64,000 nucleotides of DNA, from sequence record PZ242158.1; one strand, given 5' to 3'. This document shows positions 14,323-60,276 of the stretch, one piece after another. Below the pieces are notes generated by a model. It was not told the DNA's origin. It did not search any database and was given only the letters and a program-made list of their open reading frames with translations. The DNA is from a phage. The translations under genes were made by a program, and so were the position numbers. Within the stretch, counting starts at the first letter, position 1; each line of letters opens with the position of its first letter.

Positions 14323-14391
14323 CTCTATCAGTCTCCATATTTAACCAATCTATATTACATATTGCCGAAGAAACAGTATTTCATTTCATCA

Positions 14392-14610
14392 TCACAGATC
14401 TCCAACAACTTCCCAAATACCCCAGTGAGCATCTATATCCTTGATAAAGTATCTTTCTCCACGGTTTGTCCACACACCTATCCCAACTTTACCATCTATC
14501 CCATTGTATACATCTGCCTCATACTCTTTGCCCGGTGTAAAGTGTACACCCATCATAAGGGCTGTTATTCCATTAGGATTTTTAAATTTAACAAATTTTA
14601 CTTTGCTCAT
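14392..14610 (-). CDS. hypothetical protein
   Basis: 72-aa ORF packed tightly with neighbours; no motif recognised. Confidence 0.35.
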   Translation of the reverse strand: MSKVKFVKFKNPNGITALMMGVHFTPGKEYEADVYNGIDGKVGIGVWTNRGERYFIKDIDAHWGIWEVVGDL

Positions 14611-14611
14611 A

Positions 14612-14941
14612 TTACTTAATCCTTGCAGTTACAGTAGCGCTATACCCCATGTAGTTATGAGACATAAAGAATGTAAGCCCTTTAAGTTCAGGATTCTTTC
14701 TAAGAAATCGTTTCAATTTTCGAATGCAATTAACACCATGATCATAGTTTGAGAAATTAAATTTAATACCCTGCTCCATCATAGTGCACACTTCTTCATG
14801 GGTATGCCATTGTCTATCGTGGTCACAAAACCAGTAACCAATACCTTCTTTTTCTTGGATATGCAATCCCCAAAATACTTTATGCATTGGATATTTTGGT
14901 TTTCTACCATGATAATGTAGTTTAATATTCACATGTGCCAT
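14612..14941 (-). CDS. hypothetical protein (His/Cys-rich)
   Basis: 109-aa ORF, stop-start abutting downstream gene; no motif recognised. Confidence 0.4.
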   Translation of the reverse strand: MAHVNIKLHYHGRKPKYPMHKVFWGLHIQEKEGIGYWFCDHDRQWHTHEEVCTMMEQGIKFNFSNYDHGVNCIRKLKRFLRKNPELKGLTFFMSHNYMGYSATVTARIK

Positions 14942-15110
14942 TTTTTTGTTACTCCGTTCTGTATCTGTGATAATGAGAATAGCAAACTGGGGTGTGTGCT
15001 GTCAACAACATTTTTAAGCGTTTTGGGGAAGTTTTTTGAAAGGTGGGTGTAATCACAAGAGAGGGTGGAGTTATTGAAGGCACAGGCCTCTTTTGAGGCC
15101 TTAAAATCGA

Positions 15111-18271: not shown

Positions 18272-18537
18272 TACTCTTCCTTCATAGTTTCACCAAATAC
18301 TTCGATACGAGCGTCAAGCTCTGTTGCTTTCAGCTCCCCAACAAAATCTTTTAGTTCTTTCTCGTCCAGATCGTAAGCCCACACACAAGAAGAACATGCA
18401 GATTTCACAATCAGCAGCGTAGATACACGACCTGACTCTGTGATCATGCTCACAATGGTTCCCACAGGGAACGTGTTGATAGCTTTTTTAACTGGGCGTT
18501 CAGCTTTAATTACTACCTCTGTTGCCATAAATAACAT
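18271..18537 (-). CDS. hypothetical protein
   Basis: 88-aa ORF, stop-start overlap with neighbour. Confidence 0.35.
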   Translation of the reverse strand: MLFMATEVVIKAERPVKKAINTFPVGTIVSMITESGRVSTLLIVKSACSSCVWAYDLDEKELKDFVGELKATELDARIEVFGETMKEE

Positions 18538-20037: not shown

Positions 20038-21081
20038 TTATTTAACGTGTTTGAAAATACCTGCCAACTCGGTCATTGTCATGCGGGTGGTCTTCATAAG
20101 ATCTGTCATAGCTTTCTCCATAATTGGAGATACTACCATAAAGTTACCTTTGGTGAAACCTTTATTCCAGTCGGTCACTAACAGGGGCTTAAGTCCAGCT
20201 CCGAGACGTTCACCAGTTAAAGCACAGCATTTGCGAACATACGAACTCTTAAATTGGCTGAACGACAGATCAACTTTCATACCTGCATCGTAGAACGTTT
20301 GACAATAGAAAGTGTAAGCCTTAGCAACCTCAACATCATCAGGCAGTGCAGGAACCTCTTCTGCAATCTCCTCTTCGACCTCCTGAGGCTCTTTTTCCTC
20401 TTCAGAGTTCTGTTCTCCAATTTCTTCTGTCACAGTTTCGTTTACGATGTCTGAAATGTGTTTGTTGGCTGCACGATCAGCCATGAAATTTTTAAAGTCC
20501 TGCATTGGTGACATATCTTCTTCCTCTTCGTCAAAAAGTGCTAGTTTATCTTCTTCTGTCCCGTATTGCAAGATGAAATCTTCAAAAGTATAATCACCTT
20601 TCAATTTCTCCATACGCTCTTCGCTCAGGTGAAGCATCATCTGCTGGACAATTTTTCGATCAGTTTTGTCTTTTATCAATATTGCAGTCTTTTTATCTAC
20701 CAGACAGTCTTTCAGAGCGTTGCACCTCAACCCTACCACACAACAATTGTCAATTGCGTAAGGACCTTCATCATCTATCCGCTCCAGAGATGGGTAGAAA
20801 GGATTCCCCAGCCCGTTTTCATCTGTGTGCATGTCGAAAGGTATAAGAGTATAGTCGCATACCCCCTCTCCTAAAAGTTTTTTACCAAATAGGAGGTATT
20901 CTTCCCATGACAGGTTGAACTCTATATCTCGTTTCCGTGCATTATTTTGTTTGCGTCTGTATTTTTTGAGCAGGCGCTCTAACTCTTCTGGTGTATAATA
21001 TTTTTCAAGATTCATGAGTTGTCTCTCGTGCTCTATAGGTGAAGAAATCTTATCAAGTGCCTCGACAGATGTCAACCTCAA
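20038..21081 (-). CDS. free-standing HNH-family endonuclease with acidic C-terminal extension
   Basis: SLERIDDEGPYAIDNCCVVGLRCNALK (xRID...N...N..K HNH pattern); start uncertain (alternative ATG at 21015). Confidence 0.5.
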   Translation of the reverse strand: MRLTSVEALDKISSPIEHERQLMNLEKYYTPEELERLLKKYRRKQNNARKRDIEFNLSWEEYLLFGKKLLGEGVCDYTLIPFDMHTDENGLGNPFYPSLERIDDEGPYAIDNCCVVGLRCNALKDCLVDKKTAILIKDKTDRKIVQQMMLHLSEERMEKLKGDYTFEDFILQYGTEEDKLALFDEEEEDMSPMQDFKNFMADRAANKHISDIVNETVTEEIGEQNSEEEKEPQEVEEEIAEEVPALPDDVEVAKAYTFYCQTFYDAGMKVDLSFSQFKSSYVRKCCALTGERLGAGLKPLLVTDWNKGFTKGNFMVVSPIMEKAMTDLMKTTRMTMTELAGIFKHVK

Positions 21082-21088
21082 AAACGTG

Positions 21089-21117
21089 TTGACTTTACTA
21101 TAAATCTACGATATAGT
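21089..21117 (+). promoter_or_regulatory. sigma70-like promoter for the + strand early/replication operon
   Basis: TTGACT, 17-nt spacer, TATAGT; in the divergent intergenic region. Confidence 0.5.
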
Positions 21118-23656: not shown

Positions 23657-24840
23657 TGTCAAGAAACGTATTCGAAAGTGGTCAAATCACTGTCCGTGAG
23701 TTGCCAGCTATTATTCAGTTTGCCCAACGTCATAGCCGATCTGTCCTAATTTTGGGACCAATGGGTGTGGGTAAAAGCCAGGTGATGAAGCAGATCGCTG
23801 ATAATATGTTCGGTGAGCGAGATGACAACCTTGTTGACGTGCGACTGTCAGATAAAGATCCTGCCGACTTATCTGGGCTACCTATCCCTGTAGAAGCGGA
23901 TGGAACTACACGTACAGTGTTTGCAATTCCAGAATTTTGGCCTGCGGATCCTGACTGGAGCGGAATTATCTTTCTGGATGAGCTCACTCATGCAGATAAC
24001 TACCTGCAAAAGGTTGCAATGCAAATTATGCTTGACCACAAGTGCGGCACCTATGCATTCCCTAAGGGTTCTGTTTTTGTGGCTGCGGGTAACCGTTCTA
24101 CAGATGGTGCGGTTCTTTCGGCGCTCGAAGCCCCTCTGGCTAACCGTTTTATCATTGTAGAGGTTACAAGCAATGCAGAGGTGTTTATTGAGGACTACGC
24201 ATTCCTCAACGGGGTTCACTCCTCTGTAATTGGGTATCTGAAAAGAGTTCCATCAGCTATTGATAATTATGAGGCTATGGCTGAGATTAATTGTCCATCT
24301 TTTGCCACACCACGATCTTGGGTTGCTGCATCTGACATCTTGCACGATTTTGACAGCGGTATTATTTCTGACGCTATGGCCCGTGTTCTTCTACAAGGTG
24401 CTATTGGTCACACTGCAGCGGTAGAGATCTGGACTTACCACACCAAGAAACGTAATTTACCGGAAATCGGTCGGATTATGGCAGGTGGCTGCAAAGAATA
24501 CGTAGGTCCTAAGCAGCCAGACATTTTGTGGATTCTTGGATCTGAAGGTTGTATCGCTATTCGCAATATGATGGAAAATGCAAGTATCTCAGACGAAGAT
24601 CTTGTCAGCTGCGTGGCAAACTTCCTCGATTTCCTTTGGGAAAACTTCAAGGACGAGAACCGAGATTTTGTATTCTCAGTCTTTATGGCGATGATGAAAC
24701 CTAATGCCTTAGGAAATGCCTTGCTTATCGGTAAAGGGCGTGACAAGATTGTTGCTCAGCTGATCAAAGCATACCCAAACCTGATGAAGATTGTAAAAGA
24801 GTTTGGTGAAGAGTTTAGCGCCATTTTGGCTAAAGCTTAA
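23656..24840 (+). CDS. AAA+ ATPase, MoxR/AAA_5 type (CobS-like)
   Basis: Walker A LILGPMGVGKSQ, Walker B IIFLDELTHA; about 390 aa as expected for MoxR-type ATPases. Confidence 0.6.
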   Translation: MSRNVFESGQITVRELPAIIQFAQRHSRSVLILGPMGVGKSQVMKQIADNMFGERDDNLVDVRLSDKDPADLSGLPIPVEADGTTRTVFAIPEFWPADPDWSGIIFLDELTHADNYLQKVAMQIMLDHKCGTYAFPKGSVFVAAGNRSTDGAVLSALEAPLANRFIIVEVTSNAEVFIEDYAFLNGVHSSVIGYLKRVPSAIDNYEAMAEINCPSFATPRSWVAASDILHDFDSGIISDAMARVLLQGAIGHTAAVEIWTYHTKKRNLPEIGRIMAGGCKEYVGPKQPDILWILGSEGCIAIRNMMENASISDEDLVSCVANFLDFLWENFKDENRDFVFSVFMAMMKPNALGNALLIGKGRDKIVAQLIKAYPNLMKIVKEFGEEFSAILAKA

Positions 24841-24850
24841 GGGGGGTTGT

Positions 24851-25231
24851 ATGGCTAAAGTAGGTAAGCGGGGAAACTACCTGGTGGTATTGACCGAGGA
24901 GCCGGAGAAGGAGTACGAATGCAGCTCCACTTGCGTGATCGATATCCGAGAAAAAGATGTAGATGAAGTCTGGTTTAAAATATTGGACGCTTGCGATAGC
25001 AGTGATTATTTCTTCATTTATGTCAACGATAAGGCTGGATTCTTCCATGACGACGGAGAGTTGCCGTATGAAATCTATGAACTTGTAGAGGCTTGCCATC
25101 GTGGAGATGCGGAGTTGTTTGGCCTACGGCTGAAAAGCGGTAAATTCTTCTATCAAGATGAGTGCATAAATCTTCATAACTTTGTAGAGGGAACTTGCAA
25201 CGATGGAGAGATTTTGGCACACTACGATTAA
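24851..25231 (+). CDS. hypothetical protein
   Basis: Start chosen at ATG 24851 preceded by GGGGGG SD (track start 24803 overlaps upstream gene). Confidence 0.4.
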   Translation: MAKVGKRGNYLVVLTEEPEKEYECSSTCVIDIREKDVDEVWFKILDACDSSDYFFIYVNDKAGFFHDDGELPYEIYELVEACHRGDAELFGLRLKSGKFFYQDECINLHNFVEGTCNDGEILAHYD

Positions 25232-25244
25232 TTTCTAAGACCTC

Positions 25245-25271
25245 CCCCGCTTCGGCGGGGATTTTCTATTT
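25245..25271 (+). terminator. intrinsic terminator
   Basis: CCCCGC-ttcg-GCGGGG (6-bp stem) followed by ATTTTCTATTT. Confidence 0.6.
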
Positions 25272-25280
25272 GGAGTTATT

Positions 25281-25781
25281 GTGAAAATTAAGATCTTTGC
25301 TATTATTTTGAGCGCATTTTTATCGCTGCCTGTTGTTGCAGCACCAAAACAAAAAGTATATCATACTTGCAAGCCCTCAGATACTAAGGAAAACATTCTG
25401 GCATGCAATATCTACAGGGAGGCTAGAGGGGATGGCACGATGGGTATGCTGGCATCAGGGTTTGCCACACTAAACAGGAAATCTCACCCCAAATACCCAG
25501 ACACTATAAGAAAGATTGTCTACCAACCTAACCAGTTTTCGTGGACAAACCACGGCAAAATTTTTAAGGTGACAGAAAAAGATTCATGGGATCACGCTAA
25601 AAGTCTTGCAAAGATGCTTCTAAAGGTCTATAATAACAACCATGTTGCATACATGGCTATGGACATAACAGGTGGAGCAACACACTACCATACAACCAAA
25701 GTACGACCGAAATGGGCAAAAAAGATGCAGAGGACAGCTCAATTCGGGAGTCATATCTACTACAAGGAGCGCAATAAATGA
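25281..25781 (+). CDS. secreted cell-wall hydrolase, SleB/CwlJ (Hydrolase_2) type
   Basis: N-terminal signal-peptide-like MKIKIFAIILSAFLSLPVVAAP; Hydrolase_2-like motifs YREARGDG, ATLNR, QPNQFSW; GTG start with GGAG SD. Confidence 0.55.
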   Translation: MKIKIFAIILSAFLSLPVVAAPKQKVYHTCKPSDTKENILACNIYREARGDGTMGMLASGFATLNRKSHPKYPDTIRKIVYQPNQFSWTNHGKIFKVTEKDSWDHAKSLAKMLLKVYNNNHVAYMAMDITGGATHYHTTKVRPKWAKKMQRTAQFGSHIYYKERNK

Positions 25782-27760
25782 TTGTAAACAGTAATGAAAC
25801 TAAAGCAGTACTAACCGGAAATATGGAGGTCACCAGGGGCTCAATTTCTCTTAACAAAGAGACTTTTGGGCTAATCATTAAAGGGATTTACGAAGATAAG
25901 GTGCTGGCAAGCTGCCGTGAACCAATCTTCAATGCTGTGGACTCTCATGTTGAGTCTGGACGGGGTGATGTGCCGATCATTATTCACTCTCCTACAGACC
26001 TTGAACCATACTTCTTTGTGCAGGACGTTGGATTGGGCATGTCAGAAGAGATGGTCCGCAACACTTTCATGAACCTCGGTGAGTCAACCAAGCGCAACAG
26101 CAACGCTCTGGTTGGCAATAAAGGTGTTGGTTCAAAGGCTCCGTTCAGCATGGTGGACACTTTCGATGTTATCAGTGTGCACAATGGTATTGAAAGCACA
26201 TATCTATTATTCTTGGATCAGGGTATCCCAAACGTTACCAAGATCCGCGAGCGGAAGACTGAAGAGCACAACGGGGTAAAAGTTCAGTTCCATGTTAAGA
26301 AAGAGCATGTCCTGAAATATCGCACTGCTATTGCATCGTGCTTACGCTATGCGAAGTTTCCGTTCATCGTCACCGATCCAATGACCAGTAAGATGTTAGA
26401 AGGTGACAAGGTTGAGGCACAGTATCATTACGAGAAGGATGGCTGGAAAATGACCATCCTGAAAGGTTATACCAGTTCTGATGAGAGCCGTGTTGTGATG
26501 GGTCACCAACCTTACCGCTCCAAGTTCCTGGAGACATTGACCGATTACCCTGCAATCTGCGTAGAGATCCCTATCGGGGATTGCAATATTAACCCTGGGC
26601 GTGAATGGACCATAGAGGGCCATGACGACGGTGGATTCCAGGATCGCCTGGAGGCATTTGTCAAAGAAGGTATACGTCTTCGCGGGGCAGAAGTTGTTGC
26701 AGAACTGGAGACGGCAAAAACCTCCGCAGAAGCACGTGAAATGATGAAGAATAGTGGGGTGTTCGGACACATCTTCGGCAAAAACTTTATGTGGAACCGT
26801 TGGGAAGAAACAGGGCTTGGAGACTTAGGCGATTGTGAAATTTTCGCTGGCGGCTTAAATAAAGGCCGCATAGGCTATGCTCGTTATGGAAAGTCAGAGT
26901 TTTTGCGGGGAGTCTATTTAGTATTTAACGACGGAGACGGCAAATATAACCGAAATAAGTGTAACTACTTAAGCGAGATCACCGGACGCAACGTTTTCTA
27001 TTGCCGTAACACGGATCTGGTGGAAGAGATTAAAGAAGCGGCACACCACCCGTTCTTTGCAGATACGGTCAAATTGTTATCAGAGCTCCCTCGCCGACCT
27101 GTCAAGAAAGGTGAAACAAAAACTCGTTATGAGCCAGGTTATTGGGTTAAAAAACTTGAGAAGGATGGTTACTTTCGCCGTGAGCGTATTACTAAGGCAG
27201 AGTTCCGGAAGATTAAACACTGCATCCCTTATGAGGGTGATATCCAACGTGGAAGTTGTTGGCTGGGACAGCTGAGTAACATCTACCAGCAAAATTATGA
27301 CCGTGTGCGTGCGGCACTTCAGATTCCTGAAGGGGAAGATCTGTACCTGGTATCAGAATCTCGTCTGCTTTGGACTGATCCTGATTGCCAGTATGTTACA
27401 GAGAAGAGTGTGGAACATTTGTTGAAAGAGGATGCTTGGAAATTCTTACTGACTCGCGCAGCAAATGAAACTTCATATGACAGCCTGTATAGACAATTGG
27501 GGAAAATTATCCCCATGCAAGATTTTGGAAATTATCGGCCACATTTCCACAAGTGGGAAGGTAACACCGCGTGGAAGCATAGTGAGCTAAATCATCGTGC
27601 CAAAATCTTAATCGCCAACCGAGTCAAATGCGGGAAGGCCTATATTGCAAGATTGGAAAAGAAATATCCACTTTTGAAGCATGTAGGCTTGAAATATTGG
27701 GACACCCCTGCTATGATTGAATACCGTGAGCTGATTGATACAAAGAATAACACCAAATAA
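25778..27760 (+). CDS. GHKL (HATPase_c) ATPase-domain protein, rIIA-like
   Basis: VQDVGLGMSEEMV...LGESTKRNSNALVGNKGVGSKAPFSM matches GHKL ATP-lid/G-box pattern; 660 aa; followed by a second large gene as in rIIA-rIIB pairs. Confidence 0.5.
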   Translation: MIVNSNETKAVLTGNMEVTRGSISLNKETFGLIIKGIYEDKVLASCREPIFNAVDSHVESGRGDVPIIIHSPTDLEPYFFVQDVGLGMSEEMVRNTFMNLGESTKRNSNALVGNKGVGSKAPFSMVDTFDVISVHNGIESTYLLFLDQGIPNVTKIRERKTEEHNGVKVQFHVKKEHVLKYRTAIASCLRYAKFPFIVTDPMTSKMLEGDKVEAQYHYEKDGWKMTILKGYTSSDESRVVMGHQPYRSKFLETLTDYPAICVEIPIGDCNINPGREWTIEGHDDGGFQDRLEAFVKEGIRLRGAEVVAELETAKTSAEAREMMKNSGVFGHIFGKNFMWNRWEETGLGDLGDCEIFAGGLNKGRIGYARYGKSEFLRGVYLVFNDGDGKYNRNKCNYLSEITGRNVFYCRNTDLVEEIKEAAHHPFFADTVKLLSELPRRPVKKGETKTRYEPGYWVKKLEKDGYFRRERITKAEFRKIKHCIPYEGDIQRGSCWLGQLSNIYQQNYDRVRAALQIPEGEDLYLVSESRLLWTDPDCQYVTEKSVEHLLKEDAWKFLLTRAANETSYDSLYRQLGKIIPMQDFGNYRPHFHKWEGNTAWKHSELNHRAKILIANRVKCGKAYIARLEKKYPLLKHVGLKYWDTPAMIEYRELIDTKNNTK

Positions 27761-27770
27761 GGAGACAGTT

Positions 27771-28976
27771 ATGATTTTCATCTACGAACACTTCAAAACT
27801 CGTAAAGAAGCACGCGACCGCCGTGCAGAACTTGAGAAGAAGGGTTTCACATGTGCTATTGAGAAAGGCGACACAACCTGGACACTGGCAGTGGGTGCCC
27901 CAGAGTTGTTCGATCCTGACCGTGACAGCGTCTGCTACACCCGTGAGGATTTTGAAACCCGCGAAGAAGCCCGTTTATTTCGATACGGTCTGGAAGATAA
28001 CGGTAAGTACGCCATGATCTTAGATTTAGGCGAAGGTTCCGTTAAACGTTGGGGCGTGGTATACCCACTGTGTGTTGTTCACGGTGTGGGGTTCACTGGA
28101 GTAGCAATCAAGTCAGAAGAACCTTTAGTAGAAGTCAAAGATCCGGTGCTGGAAGTGGTGAGTAGTGTGTCTCAGCAACAGACTCGAAGCATCGAACCTT
28201 TGGTAGTTATTTGCGGGGAACTCCTCCAGATCACCTGCAACGAAGGCATTTTTGAAATTCGCCGCAGCGAAAGTGAGGAAGTTTACCAGAAAGTCTTCGA
28301 CCATATCTCTGTTCAGGAATATGATGAGGCAATTGGTGAAATCCTTGTCTGGCTGGAACGCAAGAATGAGTTCACCACACTTGCAGACAACCTGATCATG
28401 AAAGATGGTAAGCTCTACTACTACGGTGTAGAGATGCGATCCACCATTGCAAAGAAAATTGAGAAAGATTATGCAGACGGAACACTGGATGACCGCTATG
28501 TGAAATTCCTCGTTCGCCTGCTACGCAATCCTTCTGCAAAATCTGTAAACATGCTCTACGACTTTATGCAGGCCAACGATATCCAGATTGCAGAAGATGG
28601 TCGAATCATTTGCTACAAAGGGGTTCAGTTTAACGGCAGCAAGTGGGTGGATTGGCACAGTGGTAAAGTCCCACAATACCAAGGTGCTTTTGTATCCATG
28701 CCTCGTAACTTTGTAGAGGATGATCCTGAAGCTGCGTGCTCCTATGGCTTACACTGCGCCAGCAAAGAGTATGCAAAGAGCTACGGCACTGTAATGACTG
28801 TTATGGTTGACCCTGCAGATGTGGTTAGTGTGCCATACCAACACAATAGCGCTAAGTGCCGTGCATGCCGCTATGAGATTGTGGTAGCTCCGGAAGCACG
28901 CAAAGATGGAGACCCTATTGAATATGTAGTTGATCGTGACGGTAACACTATCGACATTCTTTACGAGGAGGCGTAA
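27771..28976 (+). CDS. hypothetical protein, possible rIIB-like partner
   Basis: 402-aa ORF immediately after the GHKL protein; assignment by gene order only; start at ATG 27771 after AGGAGA. Confidence 0.3.
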   Translation: MIFIYEHFKTRKEARDRRAELEKKGFTCAIEKGDTTWTLAVGAPELFDPDRDSVCYTREDFETREEARLFRYGLEDNGKYAMILDLGEGSVKRWGVVYPLCVVHGVGFTGVAIKSEEPLVEVKDPVLEVVSSVSQQQTRSIEPLVVICGELLQITCNEGIFEIRRSESEEVYQKVFDHISVQEYDEAIGEILVWLERKNEFTTLADNLIMKDGKLYYYGVEMRSTIAKKIEKDYADGTLDDRYVKFLVRLLRNPSAKSVNMLYDFMQANDIQIAEDGRIICYKGVQFNGSKWVDWHSGKVPQYQGAFVSMPRNFVEDDPEAACSYGLHCASKEYAKSYGTVMTVMVDPADVVSVPYQHNSAKCRACRYEIVVAPEARKDGDPIEYVVDRDGNTIDILYEEA

Positions 28977-41723: not shown

Positions 41724-42994
41724 TGAGCGTTATTCAACAATTCGCTAACCCGATGAATCCGCGTGAAACTGTTTTACTGGCTCACGGCATGATTAAACGT
41801 GTCAGCATCAAACCTATCAAAGGTGCTGATCCTACAACAGGTATTAAAACCACTGTGTGGCAAGGTAAGAAAATTGAATCCAGCCACACCATCTCTTTAC
41901 TGATTTCTGAACTGGATTCCTCTGATAACCTGCTTCAAGGTGGTGAAGAAGTTTGGATCAGTATGGGTGATAAGCTGCTTAAACCTGGTCATCAAGACTC
42001 TGTCTCTGTTAAAATTGATGACAAGTGGGAAACCGTAACGCCGGGATGGATCGTAAATATCCCTTTGAAGGCAAACGAGCATAACGGTAAGACCTATTAC
42101 AAAGGCTCACTGGCTAAGATGGTCAAACTGGGTGCAGGAGAGGCTCCAGCAGCGACTCAGCAGCAAAAACAGCAACAAGGTGCACAATCACAAGGTCAGA
42201 AGCAGAAACCCCAGCAGAATGCCAATCAGGACGTTTTACGCATCTATGGGGATGTGACTCAGATTGTTGGCAACGTGGTTACTGTAAATGACCACAAGAT
42301 TGGCGAAGGTGCTATGGTTGTAACTGATGAGCAGCTTAAAGACCTGGTGGTAGGTGGTCGTGTTGCAGCCATTGTTGACAAAGACACCGGAAACATTATC
42401 AGTGGTTTCAAAGCCTATCCACCTAAGGCAGAGAACGGCACTCAAGGCTCTGGTGGCAAGCGTAAATCCTCTTACGACCCTATTGGTGTAGAGACGGGGC
42501 ATAGCATCAATGCTTTGCAGATCATCCTGGATCGCGGGTTTAAGGTGGATGACCCACTAAGCGTGGCTAAAACACTGCACGTAGTCACCATTGAGCTTAA
42601 GAAAGAGTATGCTCAAGCCACCAACCGAACTGAAGATGAAGTAGGTGCCAGTGTCGGTAATGCGGTGTTGAACGCTTGTCGCCGTATTGACAAGAAAACG
42701 AAAGTTGATGATTTTGCAGCGGCAATTACTGCAGAAGCAAAAGATGTCTTGACTAATCTGGCTGAGCCGTTGTACGATTGGATCAAGAACGGTGCTGAGT
42801 CCACTGACCATCAAGAACCTCAAGCTGCCAAACAGGAAGCCGCTCCACAGCAAAACACTGTAGACGCTCCTCCTGTAAATGATGAGGAAGATGACCCGAT
42901 GGGTCAGAATCCGGCGCAGTATGACTTCTGTGATGACATACCTTTCGCTCCGGTAGGTTTGCAATATGGCAAAAGTAGAATCCACGCATTGTAA
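41723..42994 (+). CDS. hypothetical protein, possible single-stranded DNA-binding protein
   Basis: 423 aa; central Gln-rich linker [20 protein letters not shown]; acidic tail with ...YDFCDDIPF; in replication module; assignment speculative. Confidence 0.3.
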
Positions 42995-43589
42995 GAGGTG
43001 CATCAAGTGCGGAGAGGTGAAAGACCTCTCCGAGTTCTACAAACACCCAAAGATGTCTGACGGTCATCTTAATAAGTGCAAAGAGTGTTGCAAGAAGGCC
43101 AGCAGGGAGGCTGACCAATTTTCCCACGACTCTTCAGAAAAAGGTGTAATACGCGTGCTGTACAAGGCTCAAAAGTGCAACAGCAAGCAAAGAGGTCACC
43201 CGCCTCCGACTTACACCAAAAAAGAGTTTAAGGAGTGGCTATACCTAAACGGTTACAAAGAGTTGTATGATCAGTGGGTAGCCAGCGGATACGACAAAAG
43301 GAAAAAGCCTTCTTGTGACAGGATAGATGATTTCAAAGGGTACTCTTTTGATAATATCCGTTTAACGACTTGGGGAGAAAATAAAGACAAGCAGACAGAG
43401 GATATTCTGTTGCATAGAAGCACCAGCGGTAGACGGTGTAAAAATGTAAGGAGGCTGGACATGAATGGCAACGTTCTTAAAGAATGGGTATCCCACAATT
43501 CTTGTAGAAGAGAAACCGGAATATGTGTTGATTACTACATTCATGAAAAAATTCCAGCCCCAGATGGATACCTCTATGAATACTTTTAG
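42966..43589 (+). CDS. free-standing HNH endonuclease with N-terminal zinc ribbon
   Basis: Cys4 cluster CKRCIKCG...CKECCK; HNH motif [23 protein letters not shown]. Confidence 0.6.
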
Positions 43590-52861: not shown

Positions 52862-53233
52862 ATGGAATTTATTATTTTGGCTGTAGTAGTTGCCTTGTTC
52901 AACGCCTGGATCGCTGGCAAGATGGGTAGATCCGCTTTTTTATGGTTTATTATATCTATTTTCCTGGGGGTGGTTGCAACTATTGTACTTGTTATCCTTG
53001 CAATTGTTGACAAGGGGAATAATAGAAAGGGTAAAGTATTTTCAGACCTGTACGACGCTCAAACATTTGTCAACGCCTACTACAGCGATCTTCCAGTCTC
53101 CCTACGTTGCAGCCTTGCACAACAGGTTTTCGATGAAGCTAAAACCAGAGATCACGCCCATGAGATTTGTTTAACTGAGGCGGATCGCCTATTTGAGAGG
53201 AATAGAAAATATGTGGACCAGCCGTTTAAATAA
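52862..53233 (+). CDS. membrane protein
   Basis: Start at ATG 52862 after AAGAGG; two hydrophobic helices (FIILAVVVALFNAWIA, FLWFIISIFLGVVATIVLVILAIV). Confidence 0.4.
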   Translation: MEFIILAVVVALFNAWIAGKMGRSAFLWFIISIFLGVVATIVLVILAIVDKGNNRKGKVFSDLYDAQTFVNAYYSDLPVSLRCSLAQQVFDEAKTRDHAHEICLTEADRLFERNRKYVDQPFK

Positions 53234-59282: not shown

Positions 59283-59716
59283 TCCCCTCTTTGTCAAGTG
59301 CTGCATGAAAAAATTTACAAGCTGGTATGGTAGCATTTTTGCGGCCTTGTTTACATTCAGGAGTGTATGTATAATCCTTGTTGTGTGGGCGTTTATACGT
59401 CTGGACGGTCAGAAGTCTGCAGGTTAATATCTAATCTATTGGCTGCTAACTATATCCCACACAAATGATAAGAAATATAATTGTTATATGCGTAAACTGT
59501 AACTCATGTTATCAATCCCTGTATGTATCGCCAGTGGTGCGCATAATGGGTATTATGTTAAATTGCCCGTAATGATAACAGTTCTCACAATGATAGGTAT
59601 TCTCATTCATCCACACAAAATAGGTTGCAAATGTTGTGCCACTGTGTGAACGGCCTGGCCTATTAATTTCTCTCACTGCCTCGATATTTGAGAATTGTTA
59701 TAAGAATGAGAAGTAT
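59283..59716. repeat. 434-bp perfect direct repeat, copy 1
   Basis: Identical by eye to 59843..60276 over the full 434 bp; contains a promoter-like TTGTTT, 17 nt, TATAAT. Confidence 0.8.
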
Positions 59717-59842: not shown

Positions 59843-60276
59843 TCCCCTCTTTGTCAAGTGCTGCATGAAAAAATTTACAAGCTGGTATGGTAGCATTTTT
59901 GCGGCCTTGTTTACATTCAGGAGTGTATGTATAATCCTTGTTGTGTGGGCGTTTATACGTCTGGACGGTCAGAAGTCTGCAGGTTAATATCTAATCTATT
60001 GGCTGCTAACTATATCCCACACAAATGATAAGAAATATAATTGTTATATGCGTAAACTGTAACTCATGTTATCAATCCCTGTATGTATCGCCAGTGGTGC
60101 GCATAATGGGTATTATGTTAAATTGCCCGTAATGATAACAGTTCTCACAATGATAGGTATTCTCATTCATCCACACAAAATAGGTTGCAAATGTTGTGCC
60201 ACTGTGTGAACGGCCTGGCCTATTAATTTCTCTCACTGCCTCGATATTTGAGAATTGTTATAAGAATGAGAAGTAT
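59843..60276. repeat. 434-bp perfect direct repeat, copy 2
   Basis: Offset exactly 560 bp from copy 1, separated by a unique 126-bp spacer (59717..59842). Confidence 0.8.

Follow-up and report, generated by a model that had tools for sequence, protein, structure and literature searches.

A SleB-like cell wall hydrolase with a predicted Sec signal peptide, encoded beside rIIA in an rV5-like phage

The window analysed here is a 64,000-nucleotide stretch of DNA (record PZ242158.1) from a Vequintavirus, an rV5-like myophage of E. coli, and is collinear with phage HeinrichReichert. On its + strand, positions 25281..25781 contain a gene orthologous to rV5 gene 2 and coding for the 166-aa precursor of a cell wall hydrolase of SleB-like (Hydrolase_2) type; these limits agree exactly with those of the original prediction, which had been made from the DNA letters alone. 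The gene starts with GTG, located 5 nt after a Shine-Dalgarno GGAG (25272..25275, +) read from the sequence, and its TGA stop overlaps the ATG of rIIA in an ATGA. The rIIA gene (25778..27760, +) encodes a 660-aa protein with an HATPase_c_3 domain, has an AAGGAG 8 nt upstream of its start, and is followed by rIIB (27771..28976, +) and a PIF1-type helicase from 28976. The remaining neighbours are a MoxR-like ATPase and, upstream, a 126-aa hypothetical protein. The latter was considered as a conserved partner of the hydrolase and rejected, as it had no match in six other phage loci. Scans of the whole window for tRNAs and Rfam families were both empty.

Synteny and the transcription units that the rV5 authors proposed suggest that the gene belongs to the early/replication block. 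The several kb around it contain neither a holin nor a spanin gene, and it neither adjoins nor is co-transcribed with one, as a member of a canonical lysis cassette would be. The neighbourhood thus bears out the proposed placement in an early/replication block with no flanking holin or spanin. The accompanying description of the gene as lying away from any lysis cassette is only partly apt: no lysis gene is nearby, but rIIA overlaps the gene's stop codon, and a cassette as such does not exist in rV5-like phages, whose genes for lysis are scattered.

An intrinsic-terminator-like hairpin separates the 126-aa gene from the hydrolase gene (25245..25270, +). CCCCGC and GCGGGG form six G-C pairs around the 4-nt loop TTCG, followed by the T-rich tail ATTTTCTATT, and the space left before the ribosome-binding site has no room for a promoter. 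A similar hairpin stands directly 5′ of the homologous gene in CR3, EC152, phiWec187, ESCO5 and PAK_P2, and a 'terminator' feature is annotated at the corresponding stretch in phages EdH4 and HdK5; six phage lineages have the upstream terminator, and four of them have non-ATG starts. The mRNA of this region folds with a minimum free energy of -20.9 kcal/mol (z -1.9; 9 of 200 shuffles equally good). An extended pairing that would sequester the Shine-Dalgarno sequence and the GTG, in the manner of T4 gene e, is no more than an idea, being marginal over shuffled sequence and not clearly kept in EC152. Placed directly before the ribosome-binding site, the terminator hairpin would, together with the weak GTG start codon, probably keep expression of the hydrolase low, and translation would run straight into rIIA via the ATGA overlap.

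Transcription probably arrives from further upstream. Divergent sigma-70-like promoters at 21047..21117 probably start a + strand early unit, beginning near 21.1 kb, that would run into the hydrolase gene. Inside the gene, about 140 nt before rIIA, a sigma-70-like match (TTGCAA-17-TATAAT, 10/12; 25606..25634, +) could serve as a separate rIIA/rIIB promoter; such matches are no more numerous in the hydrolase region than in shuffled sequence. A literature search found no Vequintavirus transcriptome papers on expression timing.

The protein matches Pfam PF07486 (Hydrolase_2) over residues 51-161, with an E-value of 1.6e-19 and 70.8 bits against a cutoff of 27. The match covers positions 2-100 of the 100 in the profile, and the whole-protein score passes the gathering threshold. 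This Pfam search, which the original prediction had proposed, confirms its assignment to the SleB/CwlJ family from the motifs EARG, NR and QFSW, found at E47-A48-R49-G50, N65-R66 and Q85-F86-S87-W88. The protein also matches PHROG 938, labelled 'endolysin' (4e-27). Among 150 family representatives, E47 is conserved in 150/150 sequences, R66 and H158 in 151/151 and W145 in 149/151, and the 151 aligned sequences share Q85 (146), F86 (148), S87 (145) and W88 (135). The Glu47 codon (25419..25421, +) specifies the predicted catalytic residue, within the motif YREARGD. Its counterpart in the alignment with the Bacillus SleB structures 4F55 and 4FET is the first Glu of YGESRGE, which we take to be the catalytic residue of SleB. 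The family is huge, as an exhaustive HMMER search retrieved 11,331 representatives, whereas a word-index protein search gave just 10 relatives.

The AlphaFold model of the hydrolase (pLDDT 88.1) shares its catalytic fold with SleB. The only PDB matches found by Foldseek at E<=1e-3 were the SleB catalytic domains 4F55 and 4FET (target-normalised TM 0.72-0.79); 4FET superposes on the model with an rmsd of 2.7 Å, and a PDB sequence search matched the same two entries. Identity to these Bacillus proteins is 22-25%, with the QFS and H-x-F/Y motifs kept. Unlike SleB, the phage protein has no N-terminal PG_binding_1 domain (Pfam detects no PG_binding domain in it) and no role in germination. The SleB equivalog model TIGR02869 (NCBIfam) gives 50.9 bits against a cutoff of 236.5 and aligns over model positions 83-201 only. 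Judged by these sequence comparisons, the phage hydrolase shares the SleB catalytic domain but is not an SleB orthologue. SleB requires muramic-delta-lactam, which E. coli peptidoglycan does not contain, so the phage enzyme must act on a different substrate, and the substrate and bond specificity of SleB cannot be transferred to it. The gene is real, conserved and intact, with a predicted SleB catalytic fold and every family-invariant residue.

Residues 1-20 (25281..25340, +) form a predicted cleavable Sec signal peptide, with the n-region MKIK, the h-region IFAIILSAFLSL and the c-region PVVA, cut before A21-P22. The call was made by hydropathy and the -3/-1 rule and gave a single candidate site. 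Two Lys precede a 12-residue hydrophobic core, Pro17 and V-V-A, with predicted cleavage after A20; the charged n-region, an h-region within 10-15 residues and the small residues at -3 and -1 are those expected of a Sec signal. The signal-peptide-like N-terminus noticed earlier is therefore upheld, at the level of sequence, as having the n/h/c layout and AXA-type site of a signal peptidase I substrate. Across Vequintavirinae, Stephanstirmvirinae and T5-like homologues the layout keeps its shape but not its sequence, the P-x-x-A motif being retained in diverged homologues even though the sequence around it varies, and 137 of the top 150 representatives of the family carry a hydrophobic segment at the N-terminus. 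Cleavage of this precursor would release into the periplasm a basic enzyme of about 17 kDa (25341..25778, +; 146 aa, ~16.9 kDa, pI ~9.9) consisting of the SleB-type catalytic domain. There it would cleave the glycan strands of peptidoglycan, probably as a lytic transglycosylase by analogy with SleB. Cys30 and Cys42, a pair common to 31 of the 151 aligned sequences, those of the closer relatives, could form a disulfide in the periplasm.

The hydrolase region is widespread among close relatives. Its 3.8 kb match 122 phage records, with 80% or more of the length covered in 112, and the protein occurs at an identity of at least 95% in 116 phage records. rV5 gp2 and its Vequintavirus orthologues (in ime, slur16, EdH4 and, as bas58_0065, in HeinrichReichert of the BASEL collection) are likewise 166 aa long and 98-99% identical in amino acids, differing from the protein described here by a few substitutions only; they have the same GTG start, rIIA overlap and upstream terminator. 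rV5 gene 2 was annotated as 'cell wall hydrolase, PF07486' in 2013, and a 2020 paper described signal-peptide-bearing SleB-like proteins from every genus of Vequintavirinae. The identity of the gene, its predicted signal peptide and its conservation are thus already on record. Our literature search found no experiments on the activity, export, timing or mutants of this hydrolase or its Vequintavirus orthologues, and Vequintaviruses receive just a passing mention in a 2026 PNAS paper on early phage products that are toxic.

Beyond this genus, tblastn found homologues in 1334 of 50,697 phage records, nearly all from Gram-negative hosts, and in a survey of phage lysins, Hydrolase_2 is one of the dominant domains in those of Gram-negative phages (PMC8223927). 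The original prediction that this family is uncommon in such phages is contradicted by both. In T5-like phages, Pakpunavirus and Stephanstirmvirinae, the homologues are found among early or DNA-metabolism genes, away from the lysis genes.

Among other Vequintavirinae, CB7_83 of Pectobacterium phage CB7, CR3_087 of Cronobacter phage CR3 and the Seunavirus homologues (EC152, PVP-SE1) are 45-52% identical to the hydrolase and also carry a signal peptide. They occupy the same genome position, in the replication block just 5′ of the helicase, with an upstream terminator hairpin. For CB7_83, the 2020 paper reported a signal peptide and, as 'data not shown', toxicity on expression in E. coli. Certrevirus, unlike the phage described here, has no rIIA or rIIB. 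In both Certrevirus and Seunavirus, the next gene downstream encodes a small holin candidate that has a pair of transmembrane segments, has been proposed to be a class II holin and is absent here; tblastn with the small membrane proteins of CR3 and EC152 gave nothing credible in the window and portions of the HeinrichReichert genome (best E 0.13). The small downstream protein was lost, or never present, in Vequintavirus. A more distant member of the same Pfam family, CwlQ of Vibrio phage Vp670, also serves a phage of a Gram-negative host. The tblastn alignment between it and the hydrolase (31% identity) leaves out everything before residue 40, so the two have no N-terminal region in common. 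In Vp670 the Hydrolase_2 protein was the only endolysin gene found and was treated as the lysis enzyme with the holin HolA; the close relatives of the phage described here differ in encoding a second, canonical endolysin.

This second enzyme, a lambda-R-like endolysin found in relatives that are ~97% identical, has no export signal and is encoded beside the DNA ligase gene. Its identity is given by a PDB match to lambda lysozyme (1AM7, E 3.5e-56) and by published annotation, while Pfam returned no match at E<=0.01. The authors of the rV5 paper named gp89, not gp2, as the lysin, and the purified orthologue LysECP26 lyses 29/29 Gram-negative strains in vitro (PMC9728275). Among Vequintavirinae genera the other endolysin varies, being a lambda-type lysozyme, an M15 peptidase or a modular lysozyme. 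A candidate holin and the spanins are encoded elsewhere. The window itself contains, 27 kb 3′ of the hydrolase gene, a homologue (97.6%) of the HeinrichReichert 'putative holin' (52862..53230, +) whose N-terminus has two hydrophobic segments, and the spanins of relatives adjoin the terminase gene, these and the lambda-like endolysin falling outside the window. Among the annotated genes of relatives are also a distinct 'tail lysozyme' of the baseplate spike and a gp25-like protein.

Given the lambda-R-like endolysin, candidate holin and spanins of the relatives, the hydrolase is most likely an accessory and not the sole endolysin. It is most likely also not a virion protein, and it most likely does not replace the endolysin, holin and spanins known from relatives. 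We consider the case about evenly balanced that it is a wall-weakening enzyme, placed in the periplasm in advance, that aids lysis beside these proteins. The retention of a SleB-like gene in all Vequintavirinae genera while the other endolysin changes argues for an accessory role, and a link with lysis is suggested by the holin candidate 3′ of the gene in Certrevirus and Seunavirus and, by analogy, by the Hydrolase_2 endolysin of Vp670. Against this stand the lack of that small membrane protein in Vequintavirus and the predicted early release into the periplasm without an obvious inhibitor, which sits uneasily with an enzyme acting only as infection ends.

Such early release favours a rival, non-lytic reading, which nevertheless seems rather unlikely to us: that the exported enzyme remodels the peptidoglycan during infection and not at lysis. 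Possible purposes are enlargement of the cell, a change of the wall against superinfecting phages, or action together with the membrane-associated rIIA and rIIB. The position of the gene in the proposed early unit, between the ATPase and rIIA/rIIB/helicase, its ATGA overlap with rIIA, and a cleavable signal that would free the enzyme long before lysis are all consistent with this, as are the apparently tight attenuation of its expression, its presence in every Vequintavirinae genus whichever endolysin is present, and the early or DNA-metabolism setting of the homologues in T5-like phages, Pakpunavirus and Stephanstirmvirinae. However, among the papers we searched there was no precedent for a phage-exported murein hydrolase with a non-lytic role in the intracellular phase, and gene order alone gives neither timing nor function. 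Certrevirus, moreover, keeps the gene without rII, paired with a holin-like protein, so adjacency to rII is not essential. CRISPRi-ART in EdH4 (~97.7% identical) was directed at just three genes, those for the major capsid protein, rIIA and rIIB; silencing either of the two rII genes mattered only with lambda Rex present. The more specific proposal that a low-dosed early remodelling factor and translationally coupled rIIA/rIIB form an envelope-conditioning module, with the hydrolase not a lysis protein, is one we regard as doubtful.

Muralytic enzymes that reach the wall via Sec without holin lesions are known from Oenococcus phage fOg44 (the Sec-exported Lys44) and, as SAR (signal-arrest-release) endolysins, from P1 (Lyz) and phage 21 (R21). 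These belong to other enzyme families and are the sole endolysins of their phages, and the hydrolase gene differs from theirs in lying in the early block by rII, with no lysis cassette. That it could encode the principal, holin-independent endolysin was the leading idea of the original prediction; the lambda-R-like lysozyme would then be secondary. The label 'endolysin' in PHROG 938 and many GenBank records agrees with it, as do the Vp670 precedent and the conservation of the hydrolase across a subfamily in which the other lysin is swapped between genera. Yet the lambda-R homologue, holin candidate and spanins of the relatives make up a complete canonical holin-dependent set whose endolysin is active in its LysECP26 orthologue (PMC9728275), the rV5 authors assigned the lysin to gp89, and an early unit, an upstream terminator and a GTG start argue against a main endolysin, which would be expected to be expressed strongly and late; we judge the idea improbable. 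More improbable still is a SAR endolysin, in which the N-terminal segment would stay uncleaved and hold the enzyme at the inner membrane until depolarisation by a pinholin. The usual interpretation of signal sequences predicted on lysins of Gram-negative phages is a SAR domain (PMC8223927), the Certrevirus and Seunavirus homologues precede a small pinholin-like protein, and the N-terminal hydrophobic segment of the PAK_P2 homologue has no obvious cleavage site. SAR domains are uncleaved, however, and usually accompanied by a pinholin, whereas here a core of about 12 strongly hydrophobic I/F/L residues, not a Gly/Ala/Ser-rich transmembrane helix of about 20, is followed by Pro and a cleavable-looking V-V-A site conserved as P-x-x-A, no pinholin-like gene adjoins the hydrolase gene, and the search of the window and portions of the HeinrichReichert genome found no homologue of the CR3 and EC152 small proteins. 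Entry of the DNA, a role raised at the outset, would make the protein a virion-associated lysin, as a peptidoglycan hydrolase in a contractile-tailed phage might be. We consider this highly improbable, as a cleavable Sec signal would take the protein into the periplasm, whereas virions assemble in the cytoplasm, the gene lies outside the structural module, the rV5 virion mass-spectrometry supplement contains no gp2 peptides, and the relatives have the separately annotated tail lysozyme and gp25-like protein.

Whichever reading applies, several families of large virulent Gram-negative phages keep a secreted SleB-like hydrolase besides a conventional endolysin. An envelope-conditioning module, if real, might alter the wall or periplasm so as to exclude competing phages, or might blunt envelope-sensing defences of the host or its prophages, and would explain why T5-like phages, Pakpunavirus and Stephanstirmvirinae have a secreted SleB-like early gene beside a normal endolysin. 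In practice little changes, as the gene is already annotated in more than 100 genomes. A second, naturally exported muralytic enzyme, as predicted here for rV5-like phages, is also of interest as an enzybiotic.

The gene at 25281..25781 on the plus strand is an intact open reading frame of 166 codons that starts with GTG, preceded 5 nt upstream by a Shine-Dalgarno GGAG. It ends in a TGA that overlaps the start codon of the following gene, rIIA, in the sequence ATGA, and a strong AAGGAG lies 8 nt before the rIIA ATG. The product matches Pfam PF07486 (Hydrolase_2) end to end on the profile (E 1.6e-19, 70.8 bits, cutoff 27), so the check proposed with the original prediction came out above threshold, and PHROG 938, 'endolysin', is a further hit at 4e-27. 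The only solved structures matched by sequence are SleB catalytic domains from B. cereus and B. anthracis (4F55, 6e-7; 4FET, 4.5e-6), and the same domains were the only significant Foldseek matches in the PDB (target-normalised TM 0.72-0.79) of an AlphaFold model built on ten homologues, with a mean pLDDT of 88. When the protein was aligned with 150 representatives taken from an exhaustive HMMER search, no exception was seen at E47 (150/150) or at R66 and H158 (151/151 aligned sequences); W145 is present in 149, and Q85, F86, S87 and W88 are found in 146, 148, 145 and 135, respectively. The motifs EARG, NR and QFSW, read earlier from the sequence alone, are real in this alignment and form the conserved core of the family. 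In the alignment with SleB, E47 falls on the first Glu of YGESRGE, which we take to be the catalytic glutamate of SleB. By score, fold and invariant residues alike the protein is a member of Hydrolase_2, and the gene encodes a conserved, intact enzyme of this family with a predicted signal peptide.

It is not an orthologue of SleB itself, scoring 50.9 bits against the cutoff of 236.5 of the SleB equivalog model and lacking the N-terminal peptidoglycan-binding domain; the label that fits is 'SleB-like catalytic domain'. Several papers, including that on Pectobacterium phage CB7, name SleB-like phage proteins N-acetylmuramyl-L-alanine amidases, and the title of 4FET describes the solved SleB domain as a lytic transglycosylase. 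Both are literature labels, putative for the bond cut by this hydrolase.

More than 100 E. coli myophages of the genus Vequintavirus (rV5-like) share 97-98% identity with the 3.8 kb around the gene, and over its full length the window runs collinear with 33.3-97.3 kb of HeinrichReichert, a near-identical BASEL Vequintavirus. The rV5 orthologue of the hydrolase gene is gene 2, entered in that phage's 2013 gene table as 'cell wall hydrolase' (166 aa, 19052 Da, pI 10.0, PF07486), and in GenBank the orthologues go by the names cell wall hydrolase, SleB or endolysin. Annotations and published discussion of the feature thus already exist. The entire 3.8 kb at 24000-27800 also matches, at about 97% identity, sixteen GenBank records of 'Campylobacter phage' (e.g. 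MG065646, MG065647; host given as C. jejuni), which is likely mislabelling or contamination.

The gene order runs MoxR-like ATPase, 126-aa hypothetical protein, terminator hairpin, hydrolase, rIIA, rIIB, PIF1-type helicase and further replication genes. The absence of a flanking holin or spanin had been noted correctly, the immediate neighbours being the rII genes. In EdH4, a Vequintavirus phage about 97.7% identical to this one, knockdown showed that rIIA and rIIB matter only against lambda Rex. As a curiosity beside a wall hydrolase, residues 8-42 of rIIB (27771-28976) give a sub-threshold Pfam match to SPOR, a peptidoglycan-binding domain (E 1.4e-3, 19.3 bits, cutoff 21); by eye, this N-terminus resembles two short beta-alpha-beta-beta repeats, and rIIB has no export signal.

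Residues 1-20 of the hydrolase read MKIK / IFAIILSAFLSL / PVVA, followed by A-P. Ahead of the PVVA / A-P junction, the only N-terminal position that satisfies the -3/-1 rule, come two positively charged residues, a strongly hydrophobic core of 12 residues and a helix-breaking Pro. This is the predicted pattern of a cleavable Sec signal peptide, in agreement with the signal-peptide-like N-terminus originally described. The same shape recurs, with other residues, in homologues only 35-50% identical, with predicted cuts at ...VPALA / KD in the Cronobacter phage CR3 (Certrevirus), ...TPVLA / KD in EC152 (Seunavirus), ...TPVVA / QA in phiWec187 and ...LPAYA / TH in S113, and 137 of the 150 top family representatives have an N-terminal hydrophobic segment. 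A SAR domain is a long, Gly/Ala/Ser-rich, uncleaved helix, from which the hydrolase pattern differs. C30 and C42, common to its closer relatives, could form a periplasmic disulfide. The published CB7 analysis reports a signal peptide for its homologue as well.

Across the Vequintavirinae compared, the SleB-like gene keeps its site just upstream of the helicase. The order in CR3 is hypothetical protein, SleB-like protein, 62-aa protein with two transmembrane segments, 61-aa protein and helicase, with no rII genes; in EC152 it is hypothetical protein, SleB-like protein, 57-aa hydrophobic protein, rIIA, rIIB and helicase. The small membrane protein that follows the SleB-like gene in CR3 and EC152 is missing in Vequintavirus, no homologue being found in the window or in the fetched parts of the HeinrichReichert genome. 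A G+C-rich, terminator-like hairpin with a T-tail (25245-25270) stands directly before the ribosome-binding site, as it does in CR3, EC152, phiWec187, ESCO5 and PAK_P2, six phage lineages in all. Two Stephanstirmvirinae have a clear -35/-10 pair (sigma-70 promoter) after the hairpin, the three Vequintavirinae have no room for one, and four of the six genes start with GTG or TTG. The hairpin and non-ATG start may reflect deliberate limiting of the expression of a potentially harmful exported enzyme. The flanks of the window hairpin can also pair with the Shine-Dalgarno and GTG, with z only -1.9. The gene would be transcribed when the early unit, which begins at divergent promoters at 21047-21117, is read through into it. 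rIIA/rIIB could perhaps have a promoter of their own in a sigma-70-like match within the gene (25606-25634), a weak reading since the promoter scan gave no more matches than shuffled sequence does.

Homologues were found by tblastn in 1334 of 50,697 phage records, including Vequintavirinae, Stephanstirmvirinae (Phapecoctavirus, Justusliebigvirus), T5-like Demerecviridae and Pseudomonas Pakpunavirus, with Vibrio, Aeromonas and Klebsiella phages also among the matches; an exhaustive protein search gave 11,331 cluster representatives. In a published survey, Hydrolase_2 is one of the catalytic domains said to have 'dominated among G-' phage lysins (PMC8223927). Given these counts and this survey, the premise that the family is uncommon among phages that infect Gram-negative bacteria is wrong. 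In Vibrio phage Vp670, CwlQ (Hydrolase_2) is the only endolysin gene found. Large virulent phages carry the SleB-like gene together with another endolysin, whose type varies by group: phage_lysozyme in Phapecoctavirus, an M15 peptidase in Septuagintavirus and CB7, and a lysozyme in BME3 and PVP-SE1. The CB7 paper reports homologues with a signal peptide in all Vequintavirinae genera, toxicity of the SleB-like homologue on expression in E. coli ('data not shown'), and an adjacent small membrane protein proposed as a class II holin.

There is no lysis cassette in rV5-like phages, and the lysis genes of HeinrichReichert lie in separate places. Its i- and o-spanins precede the terminase gene, and its 'putative holin' at 86.8 kb has a 97.6% identical homologue at 52862-53230 (+), encoding 123 aa with two N-terminal hydrophobic segments, a charged C-terminal part and only a weak, sub-threshold Pfam match (NEMP). 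The rV5 paper proposed a different candidate, the 78-aa gp129, so that the group has two competing holin candidates. The 156-aa 'endolysin' of HeinrichReichert, encoded next to the DNA ligase gene at a site outside the window, lacks a hydrophobic N-terminus and hits lambda lysozyme (1AM7) with E 3.5e-56. Its rV5 orthologue, gp89, was called the 'obvious lysin' by the rV5 authors, and LysECP26, the orthologue from rV5-like phage ECP26, lysed 29/29 Gram-negative strains when purified (PMC9728275). The rV5-like lineage has a complete conventional holin/endolysin/spanin set. Judging from near-identical relatives, the present phage probably carries the spanins and lambda-type endolysin too, in genes that the window does not reach.

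With that complete set, the SleB-like protein is unlikely to be the sole endolysin, and the principal, holin-independent endolysin once suggested is accordingly improbable; the family, motifs, export signal and lack of flanking lysis genes in the original prediction stand, and its rarity premise does not. We give about an even chance to an accessory hydrolase. Sec would export the precursor, the signal peptide would be cut after A20, and the mature enzyme, acting on glycan strands in the periplasm in small amounts, would contribute to or secure wall breakdown alongside the lambda-type endolysin. In favour of this are a partner resembling a holin in sister genera, the example of Vp670, the toxicity reported for the CB7 homologue, and the constancy of the SleB-like gene set against a second lysin that changes from genus to genus.

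The main rival, a non-lytic early remodelling of the wall possibly linked to rIIA/rIIB, draws on the gene's place in the early block, a signal predicted to be cleavable and its translational coupling with rIIA; a literature search found no experimental precedent, and we consider it possible but doubtful. A SAR endolysin is hard to reconcile with a hydrophobic core that is short and strongly hydrophobic and with a conserved cleavage site, which leaves it very unlikely. A virion lysin is scarcely credible, given the export signal, a gene that lies away from the structural module, and an rV5 virion mass-spectrometry file in which gp2 peptides were looked for and not found.

A scan of positions 1-64000 returned no tRNA genes and no Rfam families at the gathering threshold. 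A perfect 434-bp direct repeat (59283-59716 and 59843-60276, copies 126 bp apart) lies within an ORF-poor stretch of about 2.5 kb (~58.8-61.3 kb) where the plus- and minus-strand gene blocks run towards each other, shown as a 'non-coding' box in the rV5 paper. HeinrichReichert has one copy only and no match to the 126-bp spacer, and the repeat may be a genuine duplication or may have arisen in assembly. Megablast against HeinrichReichert left 14350-15070, 18284-18513 and 42929-43070 without a match, the first holding small minus-strand ORFs (72 aa, 109 aa) in a small-gene block between the tail fibre and anti-sigma factor genes. At the 32734/32745 junction the window is missing a 'putative homing endonuclease' gene of about 670 bp that HeinrichReichert carries between its Dcm-like methyltransferase and primase/helicase genes, a presence/absence polymorphism of a mobile gene.
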